The notes under the pieces were generated by a model, which worked only from the letters and a program-made list of their open reading frames with translations, did not search any database and was not told the DNA's origin. Positions 1 to 8,236 of a DNA stretch of 64,000 nt are shown here, piece after piece. Made by a program: the position numbers and the translations under genes. The number at the start of each line of letters is the position of its first letter. Positions within the stretch are counted from its first letter, which is position 1. Source of the stretch: Candidatus Latescibacterota bacterium (GTDB taxonomy: Bacteria; Latescibacterota; UBA2968; UBA8231); the NCBI GenBank assembly GCA_965242865.1, contig CBDETK010000013.1, positions 3,328,001 through 3,392,000 of the forward strand, in the 5' to 3' direction.

Positions 1-306
1 CGGCTCAGCGGCCACATCGACGGGACGCCCGGCTGCTACTTGGTCGGGCCGGCCGGGGGGCTAACGCTCCACCGCGGCGTGATCCGGGCCGCCCGCCACG
101 TCCACCTAAACCCGGCCGAGGCCGCGTACTACGAGGTCGGCCCGGGGGACTTGCTGCGGCTGGTGGTAGAAAGCGAGCAGGGCGGAGTGCTCGAAGGGTT
201 GATCTGCCGAGTCGGCGACCGCGAGCACTTGGAGGTTCACATCGACACGGACGAGGGCAATGCGATTGATTTGGTACATGCCCGCAAGGTATATTTGGAG
301 CGTTAA
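1..306 (+). CDS. pduL: Phosphate propanoyltransferase / BMC phosphotransacylase, 5' part outside window
   Basis: Frame open from base 1: RLSGHIDGTPGCYLVGP...RHVHL...HIDTDEGNA, the PduL metal-binding motifs; BMC genes follow. Confidence 0.9.
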   Translation, partial: RLSGHIDGTPGCYLVGPAGGLTLHRGVIRAARHVHLNPAEAAYYEVGPGDLLRLVVESEQGGVLEGLICRVGDREHLEVHIDTDEGNAIDLVHARKVYLER

Positions 307-343
307 ACGCAACAATCCGCACAATTACTTCAGGAGGTAAGGG

Positions 344-907
344 ATGTCGGATGCAATAGGCATGGTAGAAACCGTGGGGCTGGTCGGAGTCGTCGAGGCC
401 GGCGACGCCATGGCCAAGGCCGCCAGCGTCCAGCTTTTGGGCTGGGATCGCGTCGGCTCCGGCTTGGTGACAGTGTTTTGCTCGGGCGACGTGGCAGCCG
501 TTAAGTCGGCCGTGGACGCCGGTTCAACCGCCGCGGCCAAGGTCGGGGAGGTGCATTCGGTACACGTGATTCCCCGCCCGCACAGCGAGTTGACGGCCGT
601 CGTGCCCGAGCGCGACGACAGCAGCGACAGCGACGACCGCATCCGCGCCTTGGGCCTCATTGAGACGAAGGGCACCATCGGCGTGGTCGAAGCGGCCGAC
701 GCCATGAGCAAGGCCGCCGACGTGGAGATCGTCAAGCTCCAAGACATCGGCGGCGGGTACATCACCGTCATCGTCAGCGGCGACGTGGGCTCGGTACAGG
801 CTTCGGTCAGTGCCGGTGCTGAATCGGCCGAGCGCGTGGGCGAGCTCGTAGCGCAGCACGTGATTCCCCGCCCCCACGACGATCTCGTCGCGCTATACTT
901 GCAGTAG
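344..907 (+). CDS. BMC shell protein with two BMC domains
   Basis: Two copies of A(I/L)G(M/L)(V/I)ET...ADAMxKAA...GDVxxV...HVIPRPH; AGGAGG RBS. Confidence 0.93.
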
Positions 908-918
908 AGGAGAGAACA

Positions 919-1182
919 ATGAAAGCATTGGGTATGGTCGAGACCCGCGGTTTGGTTTGCGTCGTCGAAGCCCTCGACGCCATGTTAAAAACCGCGGACG
1001 TGAGCTATGCGGGCCAAAAGCGCGTGGGCAGCGGCCTAATCACCGTACTAGTCGAAGGCGACGTAGCGGCCGTCAAAGCGGCCGTGGATGCGGGAGCGCA
1101 AGCCGCCCAGCGCATCGGCGAGCTGCGCAGCGTCCACGTAATTCCCCGTCCAACTGAAGGACTGACCGATCACCTTGGTTAG
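919..1182 (+). CDS. BMC-H hexameric shell protein (EutM/PduA-like)
   Basis: ALGMVETRG...DAMLKTADV...[10 protein letters not shown]...HVIPRP, single domain, 87 aa. Confidence 0.95.
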
Positions 1183-1186
1183 CTAG

Positions 1187-1594
1187 ATGGCCGAGGCTTT
1201 GCACATCGACGTTCCGGTCGTCACCGGCGACGTGCTCGGGCGCACCCACCAGGGCGAGCGGGTCCTCAGCGTCTCCCCCGGTGCCATCCTGACGCCGACG
1301 GCTTGGGATTACATCCGCCAGCACCGGTTGCAACTGCGGCGCGGCGAGGCCGGCGAGGCCCCCGCCGACAGCGGTTGCGAGCACGAGGAATTTGGTTCGG
1401 GGTACGTTGAGCCAGCGCGTTGCGGCGATTGCGCTGTCCACCAGCGCAAGAAGGCCGGCGATGCCGCGGCGAGTTGCACCGGCTGCAATCGCTACAAGAC
1501 GCTTTTACAACAAATTGAGCAGGGCCAAGCCATCGCCCCAGAAGCCTTAGTTGAGCAGATCACCGAGCTAGTAATGCACCGGCTGGCAGACTAA
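1187..1594 (+). CDS. BMC-associated Cys-rich protein with a probable C-terminal encapsulation peptide
   Basis: N-terminal GAILTPTAWDYIR module (EutT/EutQ N-terminus-like), CGDC and CTGC motifs, amphipathic tail EALVEQITELVMHRLAD. Confidence 0.7.
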   Translation: MAEALHIDVPVVTGDVLGRTHQGERVLSVSPGAILTPTAWDYIRQHRLQLRRGEAGEAPADSGCEHEEFGSGYVEPARCGDCAVHQRKKAGDAAASCTGCNRYKTLLQQIEQGQAIAPEALVEQITELVMHRLAD

Positions 1595-1597
1595 GCA

Positions 1598-2176
1598 ATG
1601 GCCGGGGCAGTCGGCATGATCGAGGTGGAGGGCGTGGCCGCGGCCATTGTGGGGGCGGATGCGGCCTGCAAGGCCGCGGACGTGCAGCTCGCAGGCTGGG
1701 CATCGATCGGCGGTTATACCACGGCCTTTTTCACCGGGTCCATCAGCGATGTGGCCGCGGCACTGCAAAGCGGCGAAGAAGCCGCGCGAAGAATAATAGA
1801 ACACGTGGTAGCCGTACCCCTCCACCAACCCGCCGCGGCCTGTCGCCATTTTGTCGATTTTCCGGCCGGGGACCCCAGCGACGTTCCGGCTGGGGCCTTG
1901 GGGTTGGTCGAGACGCGCGGCTACGGGGTCCACATCCACACCAACGATCAAATGGTCAAGACAGCGGCTGTCGAGGTAATCAAGGTGCTGACGGTCCACG
2001 ACCGCGTGGTCTGTTCGCTGGTACTGGGCGACATCGGGGCTGTCACCGAAGCCATCGCGGTCGCGCAACAGCGGCTCGCCGGCTGCGAGCGCTTGCTGGG
2101 CACGGCCCTGATCCCGCAGCCCCGGCCCGAGGTCTTAGCTGCCTACGCCGGGCCGCTGGGAGCGAGCGGTGTCTAG
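1598..2176 (+). CDS. BMC shell protein with two BMC domains (divergent)
   Basis: AVGMIEVEG...ADAACKAADV and ALGLVETRG...DQMVKTAAV...IPQP. Confidence 0.9.
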   Translation: MAGAVGMIEVEGVAAAIVGADAACKAADVQLAGWASIGGYTTAFFTGSISDVAAALQSGEEAARRIIEHVVAVPLHQPAAACRHFVDFPAGDPSDVPAGALGLVETRGYGVHIHTNDQMVKTAAVEVIKVLTVHDRVVCSLVLGDIGAVTEAIAVAQQRLAGCERLLGTALIPQPRPEVLAAYAGPLGASGV

Positions 2177-3353
2177 CGGGGCAATCGGCGTCCTGGAGAC
2201 GCGCGGCATGGCGTCGCTCATGGCTTCCACCGACGCCATGCTCAAGGCCGCGGACGTGCAGCTCTGTGGGCGGCACGGCATTGGTTCGGGTTGGCTCACC
2301 GCCGTAATCGCCGGTCGAGTGGCTGATGTAGAAGCGGCCCTTGGCGTCGGCGAGGTCGAGGCGAACCGCACGGGCGAACTGATTGGTGCCCACGTGGTGC
2401 CGCGCCCGGTTGCGTCCGCCATGGACGCCATGCCCCACGCAGCGGGCCTCAGTGCCGAACAGGTCCCGGCCGGGGCGATTGGCCTACTGGAAACGCAGGG
2501 CCTGACGCCGCTCGTGGCAGGTGCTGACGCCATGCTCAAGGCCGCCCAAGTGACGCTCGGGGGTTGGGCCTTCATCGGCGGTGCCCTGTGCCACGCGCCG
2601 GTCTTTGGCGATGTAGCGACCGTGCAGACAGCCCTAGCGGCCGGCCGGCAAGCCGCCGAGCGGCTTGGCACCGTGTACGCGACCCTCGTTTTACCCCAGC
2701 CCAGCGACGGGCTAGGCCCGCTGATGCCACCTGCGCCGCCGGCCGCGCCGCGCTCCACCGGGGCCTTGGGCCTCATCGAGACCATTGGTTACGCCGCGGT
2801 CGTGGGCAGTGCCGACGCCATGCTCAAGGCCGCGGATGTCCAAATTGAGCGCTTGAGCATCGGCAGCGGCGGGCGGATCGCCGCGCTGGCCACGGGCCAA
2901 CTCGATGACGTGCAGGCCGCCGTGCGCGCCGGTGCCGAGTCCGCCACGGCCTTGGGGCAGCTCGACGCCTCGGCCATAGTCTCTGGGCCTGATCCCATGC
3001 TAGTAGCCCGCTTTGCGACCGCGCCCGAAGGGTTGGGGCCGGGGGCGCGGCAGGCCATGGGGCTGATTGAGACGCGCAGCACCGTGGCCTTGGTGCAGGC
3101 TGTCGATCGGATGCTCAAGGCCGCGGCCGTCGAATACGAGGGGGCCTATAAGGTGGGATACTACCTGACGGCCGCCGTCGTCCGCGGCGATGTCGGCGCG
3201 GTGCAAGTCGCCATAGACGCCGTAGGGCAGGCCCCCGTGCCTGCCCCAACCAGGGGGCCTGCCCCGCCCAGATCCCCAACCGGCGACTTGGTCTCGGCTT
3301 ACGCAATTCCCCAGCCTTACAGCGGCCTCGAAGGTCGCCTGCCGCACGTTTAG
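2169..3353 (+). CDS. BMC shell protein with four tandem BMC domains
   Basis: Four repeats of AxGx(L/I)ET...D(A/R)MLKAAxV in one 394-aa ORF. Confidence 0.9.
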   Translation: MSSGAIGVLETRGMASLMASTDAMLKAADVQLCGRHGIGSGWLTAVIAGRVADVEAALGVGEVEANRTGELIGAHVVPRPVASAMDAMPHAAGLSAEQVPAGAIGLLETQGLTPLVAGADAMLKAAQVTLGGWAFIGGALCHAPVFGDVATVQTALAAGRQAAERLGTVYATLVLPQPSDGLGPLMPPAPPAAPRSTGALGLIETIGYAAVVGSADAMLKAADVQIERLSIGSGGRIAALATGQLDDVQAAVRAGAESATALGQLDASAIVSGPDPMLVARFATAPEGLGPGARQAMGLIETRSTVALVQAVDRMLKAAAVEYEGAYKVGYYLTAAVVRGDVGAVQVAIDAVGQAPVPAPTRGPAPPRSPTGDLVSAYAIPQPYSGLEGRLPHV

Positions 3354-3365
3354 CGAGGACGCGAA

Positions 3366-4520
3366 ATGATTCGGATTGACGATGCAGTGATTACCGCTCA
3401 GACCTTGGAGAGCCGCCTAGCGGGCGAACGGCAGGTCGAGATCGGCCCCGGGGCTAAACTGACGCCCTCGGCGCAGGATTTTTTGCGCGTCCAAGGCGTT
3501 GAGGTGGTCCGCCGGGAAGCGGGTCGCCAAGCCCCGCCAACGCCAACGCCAACACCAGCGGCTCCTCAGGCATTTGCCGGCATTTTCTGCCCCAATGTCG
3601 TCCTTTTCGACCGCCAGAACGCGATCAACCACGCCGAGATGGAGCGCTACATCAACTGGCTGATTGAGGTTGGAATCCACGGGCTGTATCCCAACGGCAG
3701 CACGGGCGAGTTTGCCCGCCTGTCGCGCGAGGAGCGCGGAGATGTGGTGCGATTGGTCTGCGAGGTCAACAAGGGGCGCGTCCCGGTGCTGGCCGGCGCC
3801 AGCGAAGCCAATGTGCGCGATGTGCTCGAAATGGCCGAATACTACGCCTCGCTCGGGGTGGATGCCATTGCGCTGATGCCCCCCTATTACTATGAGATTT
3901 CCCCAGAAAGCCTCTTTGAGTACTTCGCCGAAATCGCCGAAGCATCGCCGCTGGACATCCTGCTGTACAACATCCCGCAATTTACCCAAGAGCTGTCGCT
4001 GGACTTGATGGAGCGGCTCTTGCCCTACGAGCGAATCTTCGGCACCAAGGACTCCAGCCGCGACCTGCCTCGGCTGCTCAACACCATGCACCGCCTGCGC
4101 CAACAGCGATCCGACTACGTGGTGATGACCGGCTGCGAGGAGATCGTATTCCCCGCGGTGATGATGGGCGCCAGTGGGGGCACCATCGCCACTTCGGGTA
4201 TCGTCCCGGAAGTCATCGTCGAGCTGTACGAAAGGGCCACGAGCGGCGACGTGGAGCGGGCCCGCGAGCTCCAATACCGCATCCTCGACCTAATTAACCT
4301 CATGCTCTTGGGCGTCAACTTCCCAGAGGGCTTTAAGACCGGGGTGGCAGCCCGCGGCTTCGACGTAGGCCCGGCGCGCACCGCGAGCAGCGCGGCCGAG
4401 CAGGAGTACCTGCTCAAGCTAGAGGGCCAAATCAACTGCGTCCTCGCGGATATGGGCTATCCCGTCCGCGGTCCCCGCGCCTGCCCGCCCACCGACCTGC
4501 CATCGATCGTCGGGCGCTAG
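3366..4520 (+). CDS. DHDPS/NAL-family class I aldolase with N-terminal BMC-associated module
   Basis: GSTGE, LLYNIP, GTKDSS (Schiff-base Lys); N-terminal GAKLTPSAQDFLR module then a PTPTPTP linker. Confidence 0.88.
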   Translation: MIRIDDAVITAQTLESRLAGERQVEIGPGAKLTPSAQDFLRVQGVEVVRREAGRQAPPTPTPTPAAPQAFAGIFCPNVVLFDRQNAINHAEMERYINWLIEVGIHGLYPNGSTGEFARLSREERGDVVRLVCEVNKGRVPVLAGASEANVRDVLEMAEYYASLGVDAIALMPPYYYEISPESLFEYFAEIAEASPLDILLYNIPQFTQELSLDLMERLLPYERIFGTKDSSRDLPRLLNTMHRLRQQRSDYVVMTGCEEIVFPAVMMGASGGTIATSGIVPEVIVELYERATSGDVERARELQYRILDLINLMLLGVNFPEGFKTGVAARGFDVGPARTASSAAEQEYLLKLEGQINCVLADMGYPVRGPRACPPTDLPSIVGR

Positions 4521-5594
4521 ATGGCCCTCGCGAGCGCGGGTGTGCTGGTGGTCGGGGCCGGTATCATCGGCCGCTCGATAGCCTATTTCCTCATGCGGCA
4601 AAACGCGCAGGTCACCCTGCTCGACGAGGGCATCGCTGTCGGCTCGCCCACGAGCCGGGCCTCTTTGGGCGTCCTTACCCACTGCAACGGCGGCGACAAT
4701 CCCTACGCCGAGCTTTTGCGCGACGGCCATGCCCTACACGCCCAGCTAGCCCGCGACCTCGACGCAGAGCTGGGGGCGGACGTGGGCTGGCGGCCCCTCG
4801 GCGGCATCGAGCTTTTTGCCGACCCATCCGAGCTAGAAGCGGTATGGCACTTCAATCGCGCCCGCGGCTGTCGGGTCGAGCGGCTCGACGCGCGGGCCTT
4901 GCGCGCTGCGGAGCCGGCGTTGGCTGGCGGCGAGGGCCTGTACTTTGCCGACGATCACCGGGTGGATCCCGTCAAACTGGGCGCGGTGCTTTGGGCGGCG
5001 GCCGCCCAGCGGGGTGCGGCCGCCGCTTGGGGCGAGCGCGTCTGGCGCGTTGCCCAAGCGGGCGAAACCGTTGAGGTCGCTACCAGTCGCGGAACGCACC
5101 GCGCCGATTTTGCGGTCTTGGCCGCTGGGGCCTGGACCGGCGGCTTGGCCGCCCAGCTCGGCGCCCGAGTCGCGTTGCGCCCGGTGCGGGGCCAGCAAGC
5201 GCGTTTTACGGGTGCCCCACTGCGCCACCTAGTGCGGGCAAACGGACGCCACCTCATTCCAGACAGCGGCGAAACGGTCGTGGGATCGACTGTGGAGGAG
5301 GTCGGCTTCCGGTTGGCAACGACCCGCGCGGCCGCGGTGCAGTTCGCCGCGGAGGTCCGTGCGGTGCTGGGGCGGTGCTTGCCCTTGTCGCGCCAGTGGG
5401 CCGGCCTGCGACCCAAGCCCCGGGGCGGGCGTCCGCTCATCGGCCCGCTGACGGACGCGCCGCGGGTTTTTGTCGCTGCTGGGCACTACAAAAACGGCGT
5501 CTTGCTCGGCCCGATTACCGGCCAAATCGTCGCTCGCTGGATCGCCGAGGGCACCCCGGGGCGCGACATGCGCCGCTTTGCGCCCGAGCGTTGA
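4521..5594 (+). CDS. FAD-dependent oxidoreductase, glycine oxidase ThiO/DadA family
   Basis: GAGIIG, PVRGQ, WAGLRP, GHYKNGVLLGP. Confidence 0.88.
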   Translation: MALASAGVLVVGAGIIGRSIAYFLMRQNAQVTLLDEGIAVGSPTSRASLGVLTHCNGGDNPYAELLRDGHALHAQLARDLDAELGADVGWRPLGGIELFADPSELEAVWHFNRARGCRVERLDARALRAAEPALAGGEGLYFADDHRVDPVKLGAVLWAAAAQRGAAAAWGERVWRVAQAGETVEVATSRGTHRADFAVLAAGAWTGGLAAQLGARVALRPVRGQQARFTGAPLRHLVRANGRHLIPDSGETVVGSTVEEVGFRLATTRAAAVQFAAEVRAVLGRCLPLSRQWAGLRPKPRGGRPLIGPLTDAPRVFVAAGHYKNGVLLGPITGQIVARWIAEGTPGRDMRRFAPER

Positions 5595-5627
5595 ACGTAG
5601 CTCCACCTAACACCGTTGAGGTTAAAC

Positions 5628-6569
5628 ATGCCATTGCAAAAAGAAGACCTACTCGCCGCGCTAAATTCGGTGACCTCCATCCCGGTGGTCCCCTTTCGCG
5701 GCGGGCGAATCGACTACGACGCCCACGCCAAGAACATCAACTACCTGATGGAAAACAACCACTTAGACGGCGGTCGGCCCCGGGTGATTGGCATCGCCGG
5801 CACCAGCTTGGTCCACCACATTAGCGCGGACGAGCAGGTGCGGTTGTTGGGATGTACCGGCGAGCTGATGGGAGGGCGCGGGGTGCTGATGGCCGGGATT
5901 GCCCCCAATCCGGTTGGGGATGCCGAGCGGTTGATCGAGCGGGAGGCCGCGCTCGAATACTCCCCGGATGTCTATCTCGTCATGCCGCTTACTGGCGTGG
6001 CCAATCCAGAGGGCATTTTTGCGTACTACGCGGATTTTGCCGAGCGGTTGGGGCGTGCGTGCGGAGCCAAGTTGCTCTACTACCTGCGCAACCAAGCCGA
6101 GCGCGAAACCGCCGTGCGGCTGATGAACGAGTCCGAGCACTTCGTCGGGCTGAAGATCGGCACCACGGTTGAGGACGTCGAGCCGATTGTCGCGGGGGTA
6201 AAAGAGGGAACGGCACTGGTGATATGGGGCGTGGGAGACCGCTCAACCGGGCCGGCCGAGCGCGGCACCAAAGGCCATACCTCGGGCATCAACGTGGCTT
6301 TCGCCCGCGCCTCCGACGCGATCAACAACGCCCAGCGCCGCGGCGATTTTGCGACCTCCCAGCAGATTGAAAACCAACTCGCGGCCCTGGAGGAGATTCG
6401 CTTCCGCAACGGCCGCATGTACAACTATTCAGCCGTAGTTGAGGCCATGCACTTGGGGGGGTTTAGGGATGTGGATGGCGGCGAGGGCGGCCCGTTCAAT
6501 CCGCGGGTGCCGGCCGAAGTCGCTGCGGAAGTGGCCGCGGCCATAGCCGACATTATGCACTATCACTAG
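5628..6569 (+). CDS. DHDPS-family protein (KdgD-like dehydratase/aldolase)
   Basis: SIPVVPF, LLYY, FVGLKIG; ATG at 5628 follows GAGG. Confidence 0.72.
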   Translation: MPLQKEDLLAALNSVTSIPVVPFRGGRIDYDAHAKNINYLMENNHLDGGRPRVIGIAGTSLVHHISADEQVRLLGCTGELMGGRGVLMAGIAPNPVGDAERLIEREAALEYSPDVYLVMPLTGVANPEGIFAYYADFAERLGRACGAKLLYYLRNQAERETAVRLMNESEHFVGLKIGTTVEDVEPIVAGVKEGTALVIWGVGDRSTGPAERGTKGHTSGINVAFARASDAINNAQRRGDFATSQQIENQLAALEEIRFRNGRMYNYSAVVEAMHLGGFRDVDGGEGGPFNPRVPAEVAAEVAAAIADIMHYH

Positions 6570-6926: not shown

Positions 6927-7340
6927 TTACGCTGCTTGGTATCCCAAGTTCCACACGCGCAGGAGATCGCGACATCCCTGTTCAAAAGTTTGCGTAAAAT
7001 CGATTAACTGAATGGAAAACAGCGTCCAAGAAAGTTGCCCGTAGTTACAGGGTTGGTGCAAAAGGGGAATCATTTTGTTTTCAAAGTGATTCAGATGAAA
7101 AGAAAACATCAGTTCTTTCTTTACCCAAGTGGATCTCACTGAATTCGGCGATAAGACAAGCACAAACCAATCGCAGCGGAGAATCGCTTCACCAATTTCA
7201 TCATGCCATTGCTGGCCCCCAAGGACATTGGATCGACTGTACCAGACGCGAAGCCCATGCCGCCGCATCATGTCGACCAACTCTTCTACAAACTGCCGAT
7301 CTTGGTCAGAATGCGAAAGAAAAATTTCCGTTGGCAACAT
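6927..7340 (-). CDS. TIR domain protein (TIR_2 type)
   Basis: IFLSHSDQD...LVLSPNSVRSTWVKKEL; catalytic Glu present. Confidence 0.9.
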   Translation of the reverse strand: MLPTEIFLSHSDQDRQFVEELVDMMRRHGLRVWYSRSNVLGGQQWHDEIGEAILRCDWFVLVLSPNSVRSTWVKKELMFSFHLNHFENKMIPLLHQPCNYGQLSWTLFSIQLIDFTQTFEQGCRDLLRVWNLGYQAA

Positions 7341-7343
7341 AAT

Positions 7344-7790
7344 TCAAGAGATTGATGCAGATGTAGGCGGGGAGCTTGCTATATCGTTTTCCAGAATTGC
7401 CTGTGCGATTTGTTTAATCCCTTCTTCTTCCTCGTCGTATTCACCCATATCGATTATATGTAAGTGCCGAAGAATCCATGGAATCTCTTCTTTGGGTAGC
7501 TCTTCTGGATCGCCTACAAGGACGGGGATTAGGCGTTTGCGATAGTTTTGTTCGCCAAGAGCATACTCAATTTCCCGGCGTACCCAACTTGAACGCAGCG
7601 CGTCGGCGGTCAGGAGGACGACCATGGCTTCTGACTCTTTTAATGCCTGCGCTACCTTCTCCGTCAAAGTTTCCTCATACAGGATTTCACGGGTGGCATC
7701 CCACACGTCAAGGCCAGCTTTTTCTAAGCCTATCGCAACCTTCTTGACAAAAGGCTCATCCTTATACGCATGACTAATAAAGACTTTCAT
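7344..7790 (-). CDS. TIR domain protein (TIR_2 type)
   Basis: MKVFISHAYKD...VVLLTADALRSSWVRREI; start could be at 7832. Confidence 0.9.
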   Translation of the reverse strand: MKVFISHAYKDEPFVKKVAIGLEKAGLDVWDATREILYEETLTEKVAQALKESEAMVVLLTADALRSSWVRREIEYALGEQNYRKRLIPVLVGDPEELPKEEIPWILRHLHIIDMGEYDEEEEGIKQIAQAILENDIASSPPTSASIS

Positions 7791-7819
7791 AATCCAAACT
7801 ATCCTTTTCAACTTTTTAG

Positions 7820-8236
7820 CTACAAAGAGCACCTGCGAATAGCAGCTACGATGTTATTTGTTTGCCAACCAACCATTTCCTTGGCAAGGCACTGCACTTC
7901 AATCGGCACACGTTCTTGACCCCAAGGAGTAACTCCGATAATTGGCTTTTCATGGGATATGGCGATGGAGATTTCTTCCTGAATCCACTTTCTGTGGTTG
8001 ACATACATTCCAGAAACCACAAGAAAGCAGTTAATCGGGGCGATTTGTCGGTTAAGTGCTTGGCGTAGTTCCCCATCTGTCTTTGTTCCCAGTGGATCGT
8101 GCTCTGGAACTGAGTAATTGCGCCAATAGAAGTACGGTGCTTCATAGAGCAAACTCTCAAGGCGGTAGTACTCGGAGTTTTCGGCTCGACGCCATACATG
8201 ACTCAAAAAAAGATCATACATTTTAAGTTTTGGCAT
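7820..8236 (-). CDS. ThsB-like TIR protein (MTH538/DUF1863 type)
   Basis: LFLSHVW, NYSVP, GMYVNHRKWIQEEI, KPIIGV.PWGQER; AAGGAGGTG RBS. Confidence 0.85.
   Translation of the reverse strand: MPKLKMYDLFLSHVWRRAENSEYYRLESLLYEAPYFYWRNYSVPEHDPLGTKTDGELRQALNRQIAPINCFLVVSGMYVNHRKWIQEEISIAISHEKPIIGVTPWGQERVPIEVQCLAKEMVGWQTNNIVAAIRRCSL

Follow-up and report, generated by a model that had tools for sequence, protein, structure and literature searches.

The shells of bacterial microcompartments (BMCs) are built of tiles that are hexamers of one-domain or trimers of two-domain BMC proteins, and these tiles are understood as symmetric hexamers or trimers whose pores inherit the symmetry. In the CcmK3-CcmK4 heterohexamers of β-carboxysomes, a hexagonal tile consists of different paralogous BMC domains, which is thought to tune permeability; these domains reside in separate single-domain chains that combine in variable ratios. 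Here we describe a locus in a 64,000-nucleotide stretch (the window) of the sponge-associated Candidatus Latescibacterota bacterium (assembly GCA_965242865.1, contig CBDETK010000013.1, positions 3,328,001 to 3,392,000 of the forward strand) that encodes a shell protein of four fused BMC domains, termed Q (domains Q1-Q4), next to a divergent two-domain BMC protein, termed T2 (domains T2a and T2b). The initial annotation, made from the letters of the window, had noted the four repeats in one open reading frame (ORF) and proposed that Q pairs 4+2 with the overlapping, equally divergent gene at 1598-2176, that is T2, into a tile with a fully asymmetric pore. In contrast to the CcmK3-CcmK4 case, covalent linkage and 1:1 coupling would hold each domain of such a tile in a set position.

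BMC-Ts proteins (PduT, CcmO, Haliangium BMC-T1) resemble Q in having fused, non-permuted PF00936 domains side by side in a pseudohexameric tile. BMC-Ts chains, however, comprise two domains and form a three-fold homotrimer, whereas Q comprises four and is proposed to have a separate two-domain partner and no true symmetry; T2, with its two domains, matches the domain count of BMC-Ts and Q does not. The best structural match of Q is the synthetic tandem BMC-H of Haliangium ochraceum (PDB 6NER), which shows that linking neighbouring hexamer positions covalently is compatible with shell formation. Unlike Q, 6NER is man-made, has two identical domains and still forms a symmetric trimer. The classes H, Hp, P, Ts, Tsp and Tdp of the 2021 catalogue (PMC8217296) offer no slot for four domains. 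BMC domain-count classes above one and two exist, and the current classification lacks them.

Four BMC domains in one chain

Q begins with GTG and extends over 394 amino acids (aa) with no internal stop. The four BMC repeats were borne out by Pfam, PF00936 matching in four separate stretches (E 7.4e-70, 231 bits, cut-off 24.5), and a six-frame search of the genome also found the four domains in a single open frame without stops. The coding region is divided as follows, the domain types a, b and h being those of the domain tree discussed below:

2169..3353, + strand: Q, ORF with four fused canonical BMC domains, 394 aa (PF00936 x4)
2175..2432, + strand: Q1, h-type, about residues 3-88; pore loop with invariant His36 and near-invariant Trp42; predicted contact with T2b
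2469..2720, + strand: Q2, a-type, about residues 101-184; invariant Trp133 and Gly137
2757..3008, + strand: Q3, b-type, about residues 197-280; invariant Gly-Tyr (207-208) and Arg236 in the pore loop
3048..3338, + strand: Q4, h-type, about residues 294-390; pore loop with invariant Lys328 and near-invariant Tyr331; predicted contact with T2a
3239..3274, + strand: 36-nt in-frame Pro-rich insertion in the last helix of Q4

An AlphaFold2 model of Q, built from an alignment of 68 homologues, has a predicted local distance difference test score (pLDDT) of 91.2 and a predicted template modelling score (pTM) of 0.90. DSSP analysis of the model shows the canonical, non-permuted β-α-β-β-α-β-α order in each domain, and positions 1-75 of the Pfam profile are matched in order, so Q is not circularly permuted, unlike BMC-Tdp and BMC-Tsp proteins. 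The initial annotation had reckoned with a stop or frameshift that splits Q into two tandem genes, and with two of the domains lacking the BMC fold. The frame proved to be open, also in a contig from a separate study, and the secondary structure of all four modelled domains is canonical.

Superposition of Q1 and Q2 together (residues 3-189) on 6NER_b, the solved synthetic tandem BMC-H chain, gives Z 27.0 and a root-mean-square deviation (rmsd) of 1.8 Å over 178 residues; thus, consecutive Q domains are placed like hexamer neighbours. Individually, Q1, Q2 and Q3 match the BMC-H chains of PduA, EutM and CcmK with Z of about 16-17. Q4 is absent among the 50 structural matches listed, and its fold assignment comes from Pfam and from DSSP of the model. 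Foldseek comparison of the model with the PDB also retrieves natural BMC-Ts chains (PduT 3PAC and 3N79, 3NWG, HO BMC-T 5DIH), over ~180 columns at an rmsd of 15-16 Å and a TM score of ~0.4, whereas the synthetic 6NER fits at 2-4 Å; the best NCBIfam model is CcmO, below its cut-off. The poor fit to BMC-Ts reflects either out-of-register alignments or an arrangement of consecutive Q domains other than that in natural BMC-Ts chains.

Public contigs of two sequencing runs are identical to the window over 1598-3353 and may be the source of the assembly. The contig from another study, a sponge-metagenome contig of run X4, spans 1639-3353 with 27 listed substitutions and an open frame, and in it the Pro-rich insertion of Q4 is longer by 12 nt, again in frame. 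This insertion contains a short direct repeat, is missing from close relatives and varies in length between strains. Its site includes residues 360-369, the sole stretch of Q with pLDDT <50 in the AlphaFold2 model, and it looks like a slippage-prone surface loop.

Among 168 genomes assigned to Latescibacterota by their record titles, 86 match Q at E <=1e-30. Three of these (G017, G019, G032) were left out as weak matches with internal stops, which leaves Q orthologues of 48-100% identity in 83 genomes, belonging to three families of one class. The full-length matches, about 78 in number and many of them on closed chromosomes, are free of stops. In the protein collection, 852 proteins among the scored candidates match at E <=1e-5; the best 120 of these are nearly all of ~370-400 aa with 52-89% identity and mostly 96-100% coverage, and their named sources are Latescibacterota or, under older labels, Gemmatimonadetes metagenome-assembled genomes (MAGs). 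The homologue survey suggested as a check in the initial annotation thereby found a conserved family in both the protein collection and the 168 genomes. Outside the Latescibacterota group, the genome scan detected nothing but two-domain genes and arrays of unfused BMC-H genes, and matches in Firmicutes and cyanobacteria were rejected as Q fusions, being separate BMC-H arrays or two-domain CcmO-like genes. Q is widespread within one Latescibacterota class, and the family is common in marine and sponge-associated members of the phylum.

The conservation bears on whether the four-domain ORF could be an artefact of gene calling (neighbouring genes merged into one) or of assembly, or else a gene in decay. 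Two single metagenome contigs are interrupted, which would fit such an explanation: L181 (304-1449) has an in-frame TAG in the Q2-Q3 linker with a TTG directly after it, and L158 (3294-4428, coverage ~5) has a stop and a frameshift after Q3, Q4 beginning at its conserved ATG. These interruptions may be sequencing errors, or the six domains may be naturally divided 2+2+2 and 2+3+1 in these two loci. A chance four-domain ORF is excluded because full-length, stop-free orthologues are conserved throughout the phylum genomes and more than 120 protein clusters of ~380 aa exist; with the frame kept in the independent contig and every domain conserved, the artefact explanation is refuted for the Q family and hardly credible for the gene in the window. 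Q is a genuine, ancient four-domain shell protein.

In the BMC-Ts tree of the 2021 catalogue, a basal 'hazel' clade of 187-194 aa from 'Gemmatimonadetes' CME MAGs is typed MUF2 (Sutter et al., PMC8217296, supplementary file 3). Its member CME28_01115 adjoins, by locus tag, CME28_01110, a 'hypothetical protein' of 382 aa that is 60% identical to Q (homologue P0065). Judging by these neighbouring locus tags and the matching lengths in supplementary file 3, the Q locus type appears to be filed as MUF2 and T2 appears to be catalogued as an odd BMC-Ts of that type. The main text of PMC8217296 presents MUF2 as a type of unknown function and makes no mention of a four-domain protein, which the locus diagrams of Supplementary Data 2 may show. 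In a literature search, 'MUF2' occurred only in this catalogue and its preprint. Full-text literature searches for four-, three- and multi-domain BMC proteins returned nothing relevant, the 'three tandem BMC-domain dimers' of one match being ordinary trimers.

The neighbouring gene T2 and a putative 4+2 tile

The gene upstream of Q and the junction between the two are located as follows:

1598..2176, + strand: T2, divergent two-domain BMC protein, 192 aa (PF00936 x2); proposed partner, ring positions 1-2
2169..2176, + strand: 8-nt overlap of the T2 stop (TAG) with the Q start (GTG)

The overlap likely reflects translational coupling. T2 orthologues occur in 84 of the 168 phylum genomes, namely the 83 with Q and G096, whose contig breaks off within T2. 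All 32 genome loci with sequence 5' of Q have a two-domain gene directly before it; in 31 of them the T2 stop overlaps the Q start or lies within about 10 nt of it, the gap in the remaining locus (L118) being 184 nt. The junctions are of at least three sequence kinds: besides the 8-nt overlap of the window, there is an overlap of 1 nt (TGATG) and a TAG-ACC-GTG with both genes in one frame. With the T2 alignment as the seed, a scan of metagenomes yielded 73 loci, 61 of them with a whole T2b domain. Where 350 nt or more follow T2, Q1 comes next (52/52 loci), and where 1300 nt or more follow it, Q1-Q4 are in order (41/42 loci), the exception (L174) having a frameshift inside Q1. In L026 and L109, T2 and Q share one frame and are parted only by TAG-ACC-GTG, so that, by the sequence, one stop-codon change would yield a six-domain chain. 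Open frames of 480-791 aa in 12 relatives were rejected as six-domain fusions, because the extra part overlaps T2 in another frame.

The Q alignment and a T2 alignment of 22 rows were used for ESMFold2 modelling of the complex. The interaction prediction score from aligned errors (ipSAE) was 0.78, 0.74 and 0.64 (median 0.74), compared with 0.02 for the best of three controls; of 157 solved complexes 116 attain the pass mark of the tool, as do 2 of 215 mismatched pairs, figures that are a rough guide here, own alignments having been used. The Q+T2 runs have at least 87% of their contacts in common, with a partner pLDDT of at least 87. Confident contacts are formed by Q residues 6-89 (Q1) with T2 residues 108-138 (T2b), and by Q residues 304-334 (Q4) with T2 residues 5-85 (T2a). 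In both, the helix-A side of one domain packs against the sheet side of the next. Because the T2b-Q1 and Q4-T2a contacts have the same polarity, they give a closed head-to-tail ring, T2a-T2b-Q1-Q2-Q3-Q4, in gene order. The analysis shows the domain count, the fold, the conservation, the gene linkage and the distinct pore loops; the ring, its stoichiometry and the role of its pore are inferred from them. The four Q domains would take four neighbouring positions of a hexagonal shell tile and the co-translated T2 would fill the remaining two, generating a 1:1 heterodimeric pseudohexamer. The 4+2 pairing put forward in the initial annotation thus gains computational support from the Pfam count, the homologues, the adjacency of the two genes and the complex score (0.74 vs 0.02), and we judge it more likely than not that Q supplies four of the six positions in a heterodimeric tile and T2 the other two. 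The model shows that the Q+T2 pair is compatible with one ring; a preference over T1, the conventional two-domain BMC-T of the locus, or over two BMC-H chains is outside its reach.

Alternatively, Q may occupy four ring positions and T1 or two BMC-H chains may close the ring, T2 assembling separately. Both genes are in the same locus, the (a,b) domain types of T1 fit the slots of T2, and BMC domains pack generically. Yet T2, not T1, is attached to Q in every locus, whereas T1 and BMC-H are kilobases off or outside the fetched region in L020, L113, L115 and L124. T2 and Q are also alike in their divergence, while T1 and H remain close to one another, and a Gly-Tyr and a pore Arg common to T2b and Q3 are missing in T1b. 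We therefore consider a different partner unlikely.

A homotrimer of Q is likewise improbable. In such an assembly twelve domains would make up a pair of pseudohexamers, joined covalently and either stacked or lying next to each other, and T2 would be an ordinary BMC-T homotrimer. Twelve is divisible by six, the three interdomain linkers of Q are similar in length (about 15-25 residues), and T2 carries near its pore loop an invariant Cys139 that would suit a symmetric trimer site; furthermore, double-stacked trimers occur among BMC-T proteins according to the catalogue sections on BMC-Tdp (PMC8217296). The Q domains, however, are non-permuted, unlike those of the stacking BMC-Tdp. AlphaFold2 gives one confident four-domain arrangement (pTM 0.90), the complex model requires a contiguous arc, and two rings made from three chains need non-equivalent chains or a broken intrachain interface. 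A homotrimer would also leave a dedicated, translationally coupled two-domain partner unexplained.

Several points weigh against the 4+2 tile itself. The complex score may stem from the model's memory of solved BMC hexamers, a caution issued by the tool, and the controls were unrelated proteins from outside the BMC family; in a model, T1 or a pair of BMC-H chains might close the ring just as well, and T2 could be an ordinary homotrimer. The co-occurrence of T2 and Q is not specific, since the locus is inherited as a unit. No six-domain T2-Q fusion was found, in that the search gave no homologue above 690 aa (weak evidence) and none is among the best 120 near-length matches or the best 150 representatives. 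Finally, according to the per-position consensus over orthologues, the arginine of the P-R-P edge motif is retained in Q1 and Q3 and replaced in T2a, T2b and Q2, a loss that could mean altered or weaker tiling.

Pore loops, tile edges and the ancestry of the domains

The D-x-x-x-K lysine at the tile edge has a role in tile-to-tile contacts, as known from PduA studies. This lysine is kept in at least 90% of the orthologues in Q1-Q4, T2a and T2b, and with an edge lysine in all six domains every edge of a 4+2 tile could dock to neighbours.

The six pore loops all differ, being small and Gly-rich in T2a, Q1, Q2 and Q3, His-Asn/Asp-Arg in T2b and Gly-Tyr-Tyr/Phe in Q4. Invariant or near-invariant residues of the pore region are His36 and Trp42 in Q1, Trp133 and His142 in Q2, Arg236 in Q3, Lys328 and Tyr331 in Q4, and Arg136 and Cys139 in T2b. 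T2b and Q3 have in common a Gly-Tyr after strand 1 and a loop Arg in the same alignment column, neither of which is found in T1b. Given these common residues, the T2b-Q1 contact would mirror the intrachain Q3-Q4 contact, and in the modelled ring T2b and Q3 would lie opposite each other.

With each ring position a separate gene segment, the six pore loops would have diverged independently, leaving the central pore without rotational symmetry. Two opposed invariant arginines (T2b Arg136 and Q3 Arg236) would line this pore, together with His, Trp, Lys and Tyr from Q1 and Q4. Such a pore would presumably be basic, partly occluded and non-symmetric, and suited to an anionic metabolite or cofactor. 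The 'fully asymmetric' pore of the initial annotation stands insofar as six different loops are present; a hint in the domain tree of a pseudo-two-fold order, (a-b-h)x2, may soften that description to a pore with no true symmetry.

When 135 domains of 16 loci are placed in a tree, the nine positions (T1a, T1b, H, T2a, T2b, Q1-Q4) come out as one clade each, with a Shimodaira-Hasegawa-like approximate likelihood ratio (SH-aLRT) support of 70-100, and the same nine clades have values of 94-100 in a 72-domain subset. The monophyly of the position clades places the fusion and the individuality of the positions before the divergence of these families. T1b, T2b and Q3 split from the other domains with SH-aLRT values of 94 and 90 in the two sets; H, Q1 and Q4 cluster with a value of 88 in the set of 135 domains and 47 in that of 72. 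Trees constrained to group T1a, T2a and Q2 are 39 and 8.7 log-likelihood units above quick free searches. By HHalign profile scores, Q1 and Q4 are nearest to H, Q2 and T2a are nearest to each other and to T1a, and Q3 is nearest to T1b and T2b.

These sequence comparisons suggest that the operon order is a-b-h three times, T1a-T1b-H, T2a-T2b-Q1 and Q2-Q3-Q4, and the best-scoring picture, suggested rather than demonstrated, is a triplication of a BMC-T + BMC-H cassette followed by an H2-T3-H3 fusion. An origin by T-T duplication, with Q1 related to Q3 and Q2 to Q4, falls short of the free tree of the 72-domain set, the one that the a/b/h-constrained tree surpasses by 8.7, by 4.3 and 2.6 log-likelihood units and is not rejected by the approximately unbiased test (p-AU 0.41 and 0.46). 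Under the cassette scheme the proposed ring would be pseudo-two-fold, (a-b-h)x2. The fuller proposal, an obligate tile of a four-domain and a two-domain chain whose six positions come from three a-b-h cassette copies and whose pseudo-two-fold ring has two opposed pore arginines, is advanced tentatively, as possible but less likely than not.

The same domain affinities might be expected if Q were a cross-linker, its H-like ends (Q1, Q4) and T-like core (Q2-Q3) joining different neighbouring tiles and stapling the facet. In the best tree, Q1 and Q4 do join BMC-H, Q2 joins the first BMC-T domain and Q3 the second, and the interdomain linkers could span a tile edge. In the structural model, however, Q1 and Q2 are in-ring neighbours that follow the solved tandem chain within an rmsd of 1.8 Å, and the pTM of 0.90 speaks against independent beads on a string. 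Six distinct, separately conserved pore loops would be unexpected if Q1 or Q4 built homohexamers, and a cross-linking role is very unlikely.

If the fuller proposal is correct, the tile would be the first natural BMC tile with every position separately encoded and evolvable. The six independently evolving pore loops of a 4+2 tile would allow a binding site or gate beyond any symmetric tile, and such a tile would offer a natural template for engineered shells whose six tile positions can be addressed one by one.

Natural three-domain BMC proteins were also observed. Of 27 non-Q representatives of 276-569 aa, picked by length from the best 150, 14 have three PF00936 stretches in 283-330 aa (P0130, P0134, P0135, P0137, P0138, P0139, P0141, P0142, P0146, P0156, P0157, P0187, P0190 and P0204). 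Several are found on multiple contigs, up to 214 kb in length. An origin as pieces of T2 or Q was rejected, the domain-profile scores being 30-104 vs 126-146 for a true orthologue. A literature search for three-domain BMC proteins found no description. Two three-domain chains could close a six-domain ring, and together with a 4+2 tile, if real, shell tiles would come as 6x1, 3x2, 2x3 and 4+2 partitions.

The surrounding operon

The other genes of the operon in the window are:

1..306, + strand: 3' end of a PduL-type phosphotransacylase gene (PF06130)
344..907, + strand: T1, conventional two-domain BMC-T (PF00936 x2), kept upstream in relatives
919..1182, + strand: BMC-H, single-domain hexamer protein (PF00936)
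1187..1594, + strand: Cys-containing conserved protein of 135 aa without a Pfam family, between BMC-H and T2
3366..6569, + strand: candidate cargo enzymes, namely a DHDPS/NAL-family enzyme, a DAO-family FAD oxidoreductase and a second DHDPS-like protein

The plus strand from 1 to 6569 is the downstream half of a microcompartment operon. Genes for an acylating aldehyde dehydrogenase (PF00171; NCBIfam PRK15398, 658 bits vs a cut-off of 403) and a BMC-P pentamer, and the start of the PduL phosphotransacylase gene, lie 5' of the window. The aldehyde dehydrogenase, PduL (PF06130) and BMC-P (PF03319) beside BMC-domain genes identify a metabolosome locus. Q would be part of this metabolosome, and the putative 4+2 tile would probably provide a specialised or closed passage through a shell of otherwise conventional composition (BMC-H, T1 and BMC-P). 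The locus is the sole BMC-domain locus in the 6.0-Mb genome, with nine domains in total in the six-frame search. Besides the BMC-P gene of the main locus, three adjacent BMC-P genes form a satellite locus outside the window (G000:C13:5462503-5463298), which resembles the 'BMC-P triplet' pattern in the relevant part of the 2021 catalogue (PMC8217296).

The order of the candidate cargo enzymes is the same in relatives, and the whole enzyme set, with the acylating aldehyde dehydrogenase and PduL, involves 3366-6569 of the window and L010 15897-17309. The three non-core enzymes (two DHDPS-like and one DAO-family) all score under every NCBIfam equivalog cut-off. The combination is reminiscent of the D-hydroxyproline route, in which an FAD dehydrogenase, a DHDPS-type deaminase and a semialdehyde dehydrogenase take part, and such a route would suit a sponge (collagen) habitat. 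The Pfam match of the DHDPS/NAL-family enzyme begins at residue 70, and the preceding N-terminal extension of ~70 aa is a possible encapsulation extension. Between BMC-H and T2, all close relatives have a protein of 135-150 aa with two Cys pairs, the ORF at the position of the 135-aa protein being 148-150 aa long in relatives. Residues 19-50 of the 135-aa protein give a borderline match (E 0.00099) to the C-terminus of TIGR02536, an ethanolamine-utilisation hypothetical protein.

Just 3' of the operon, at 7344-7832 on the minus strand, the window encodes a TIR-domain protein (PF13676, E 2e-25; also ThsB_TIR). Its gene lies in a low-GC stretch, with a GC content of 0.459 at 7001-8000 vs ~0.62-0.71 around it, and looks like an inserted defence gene.

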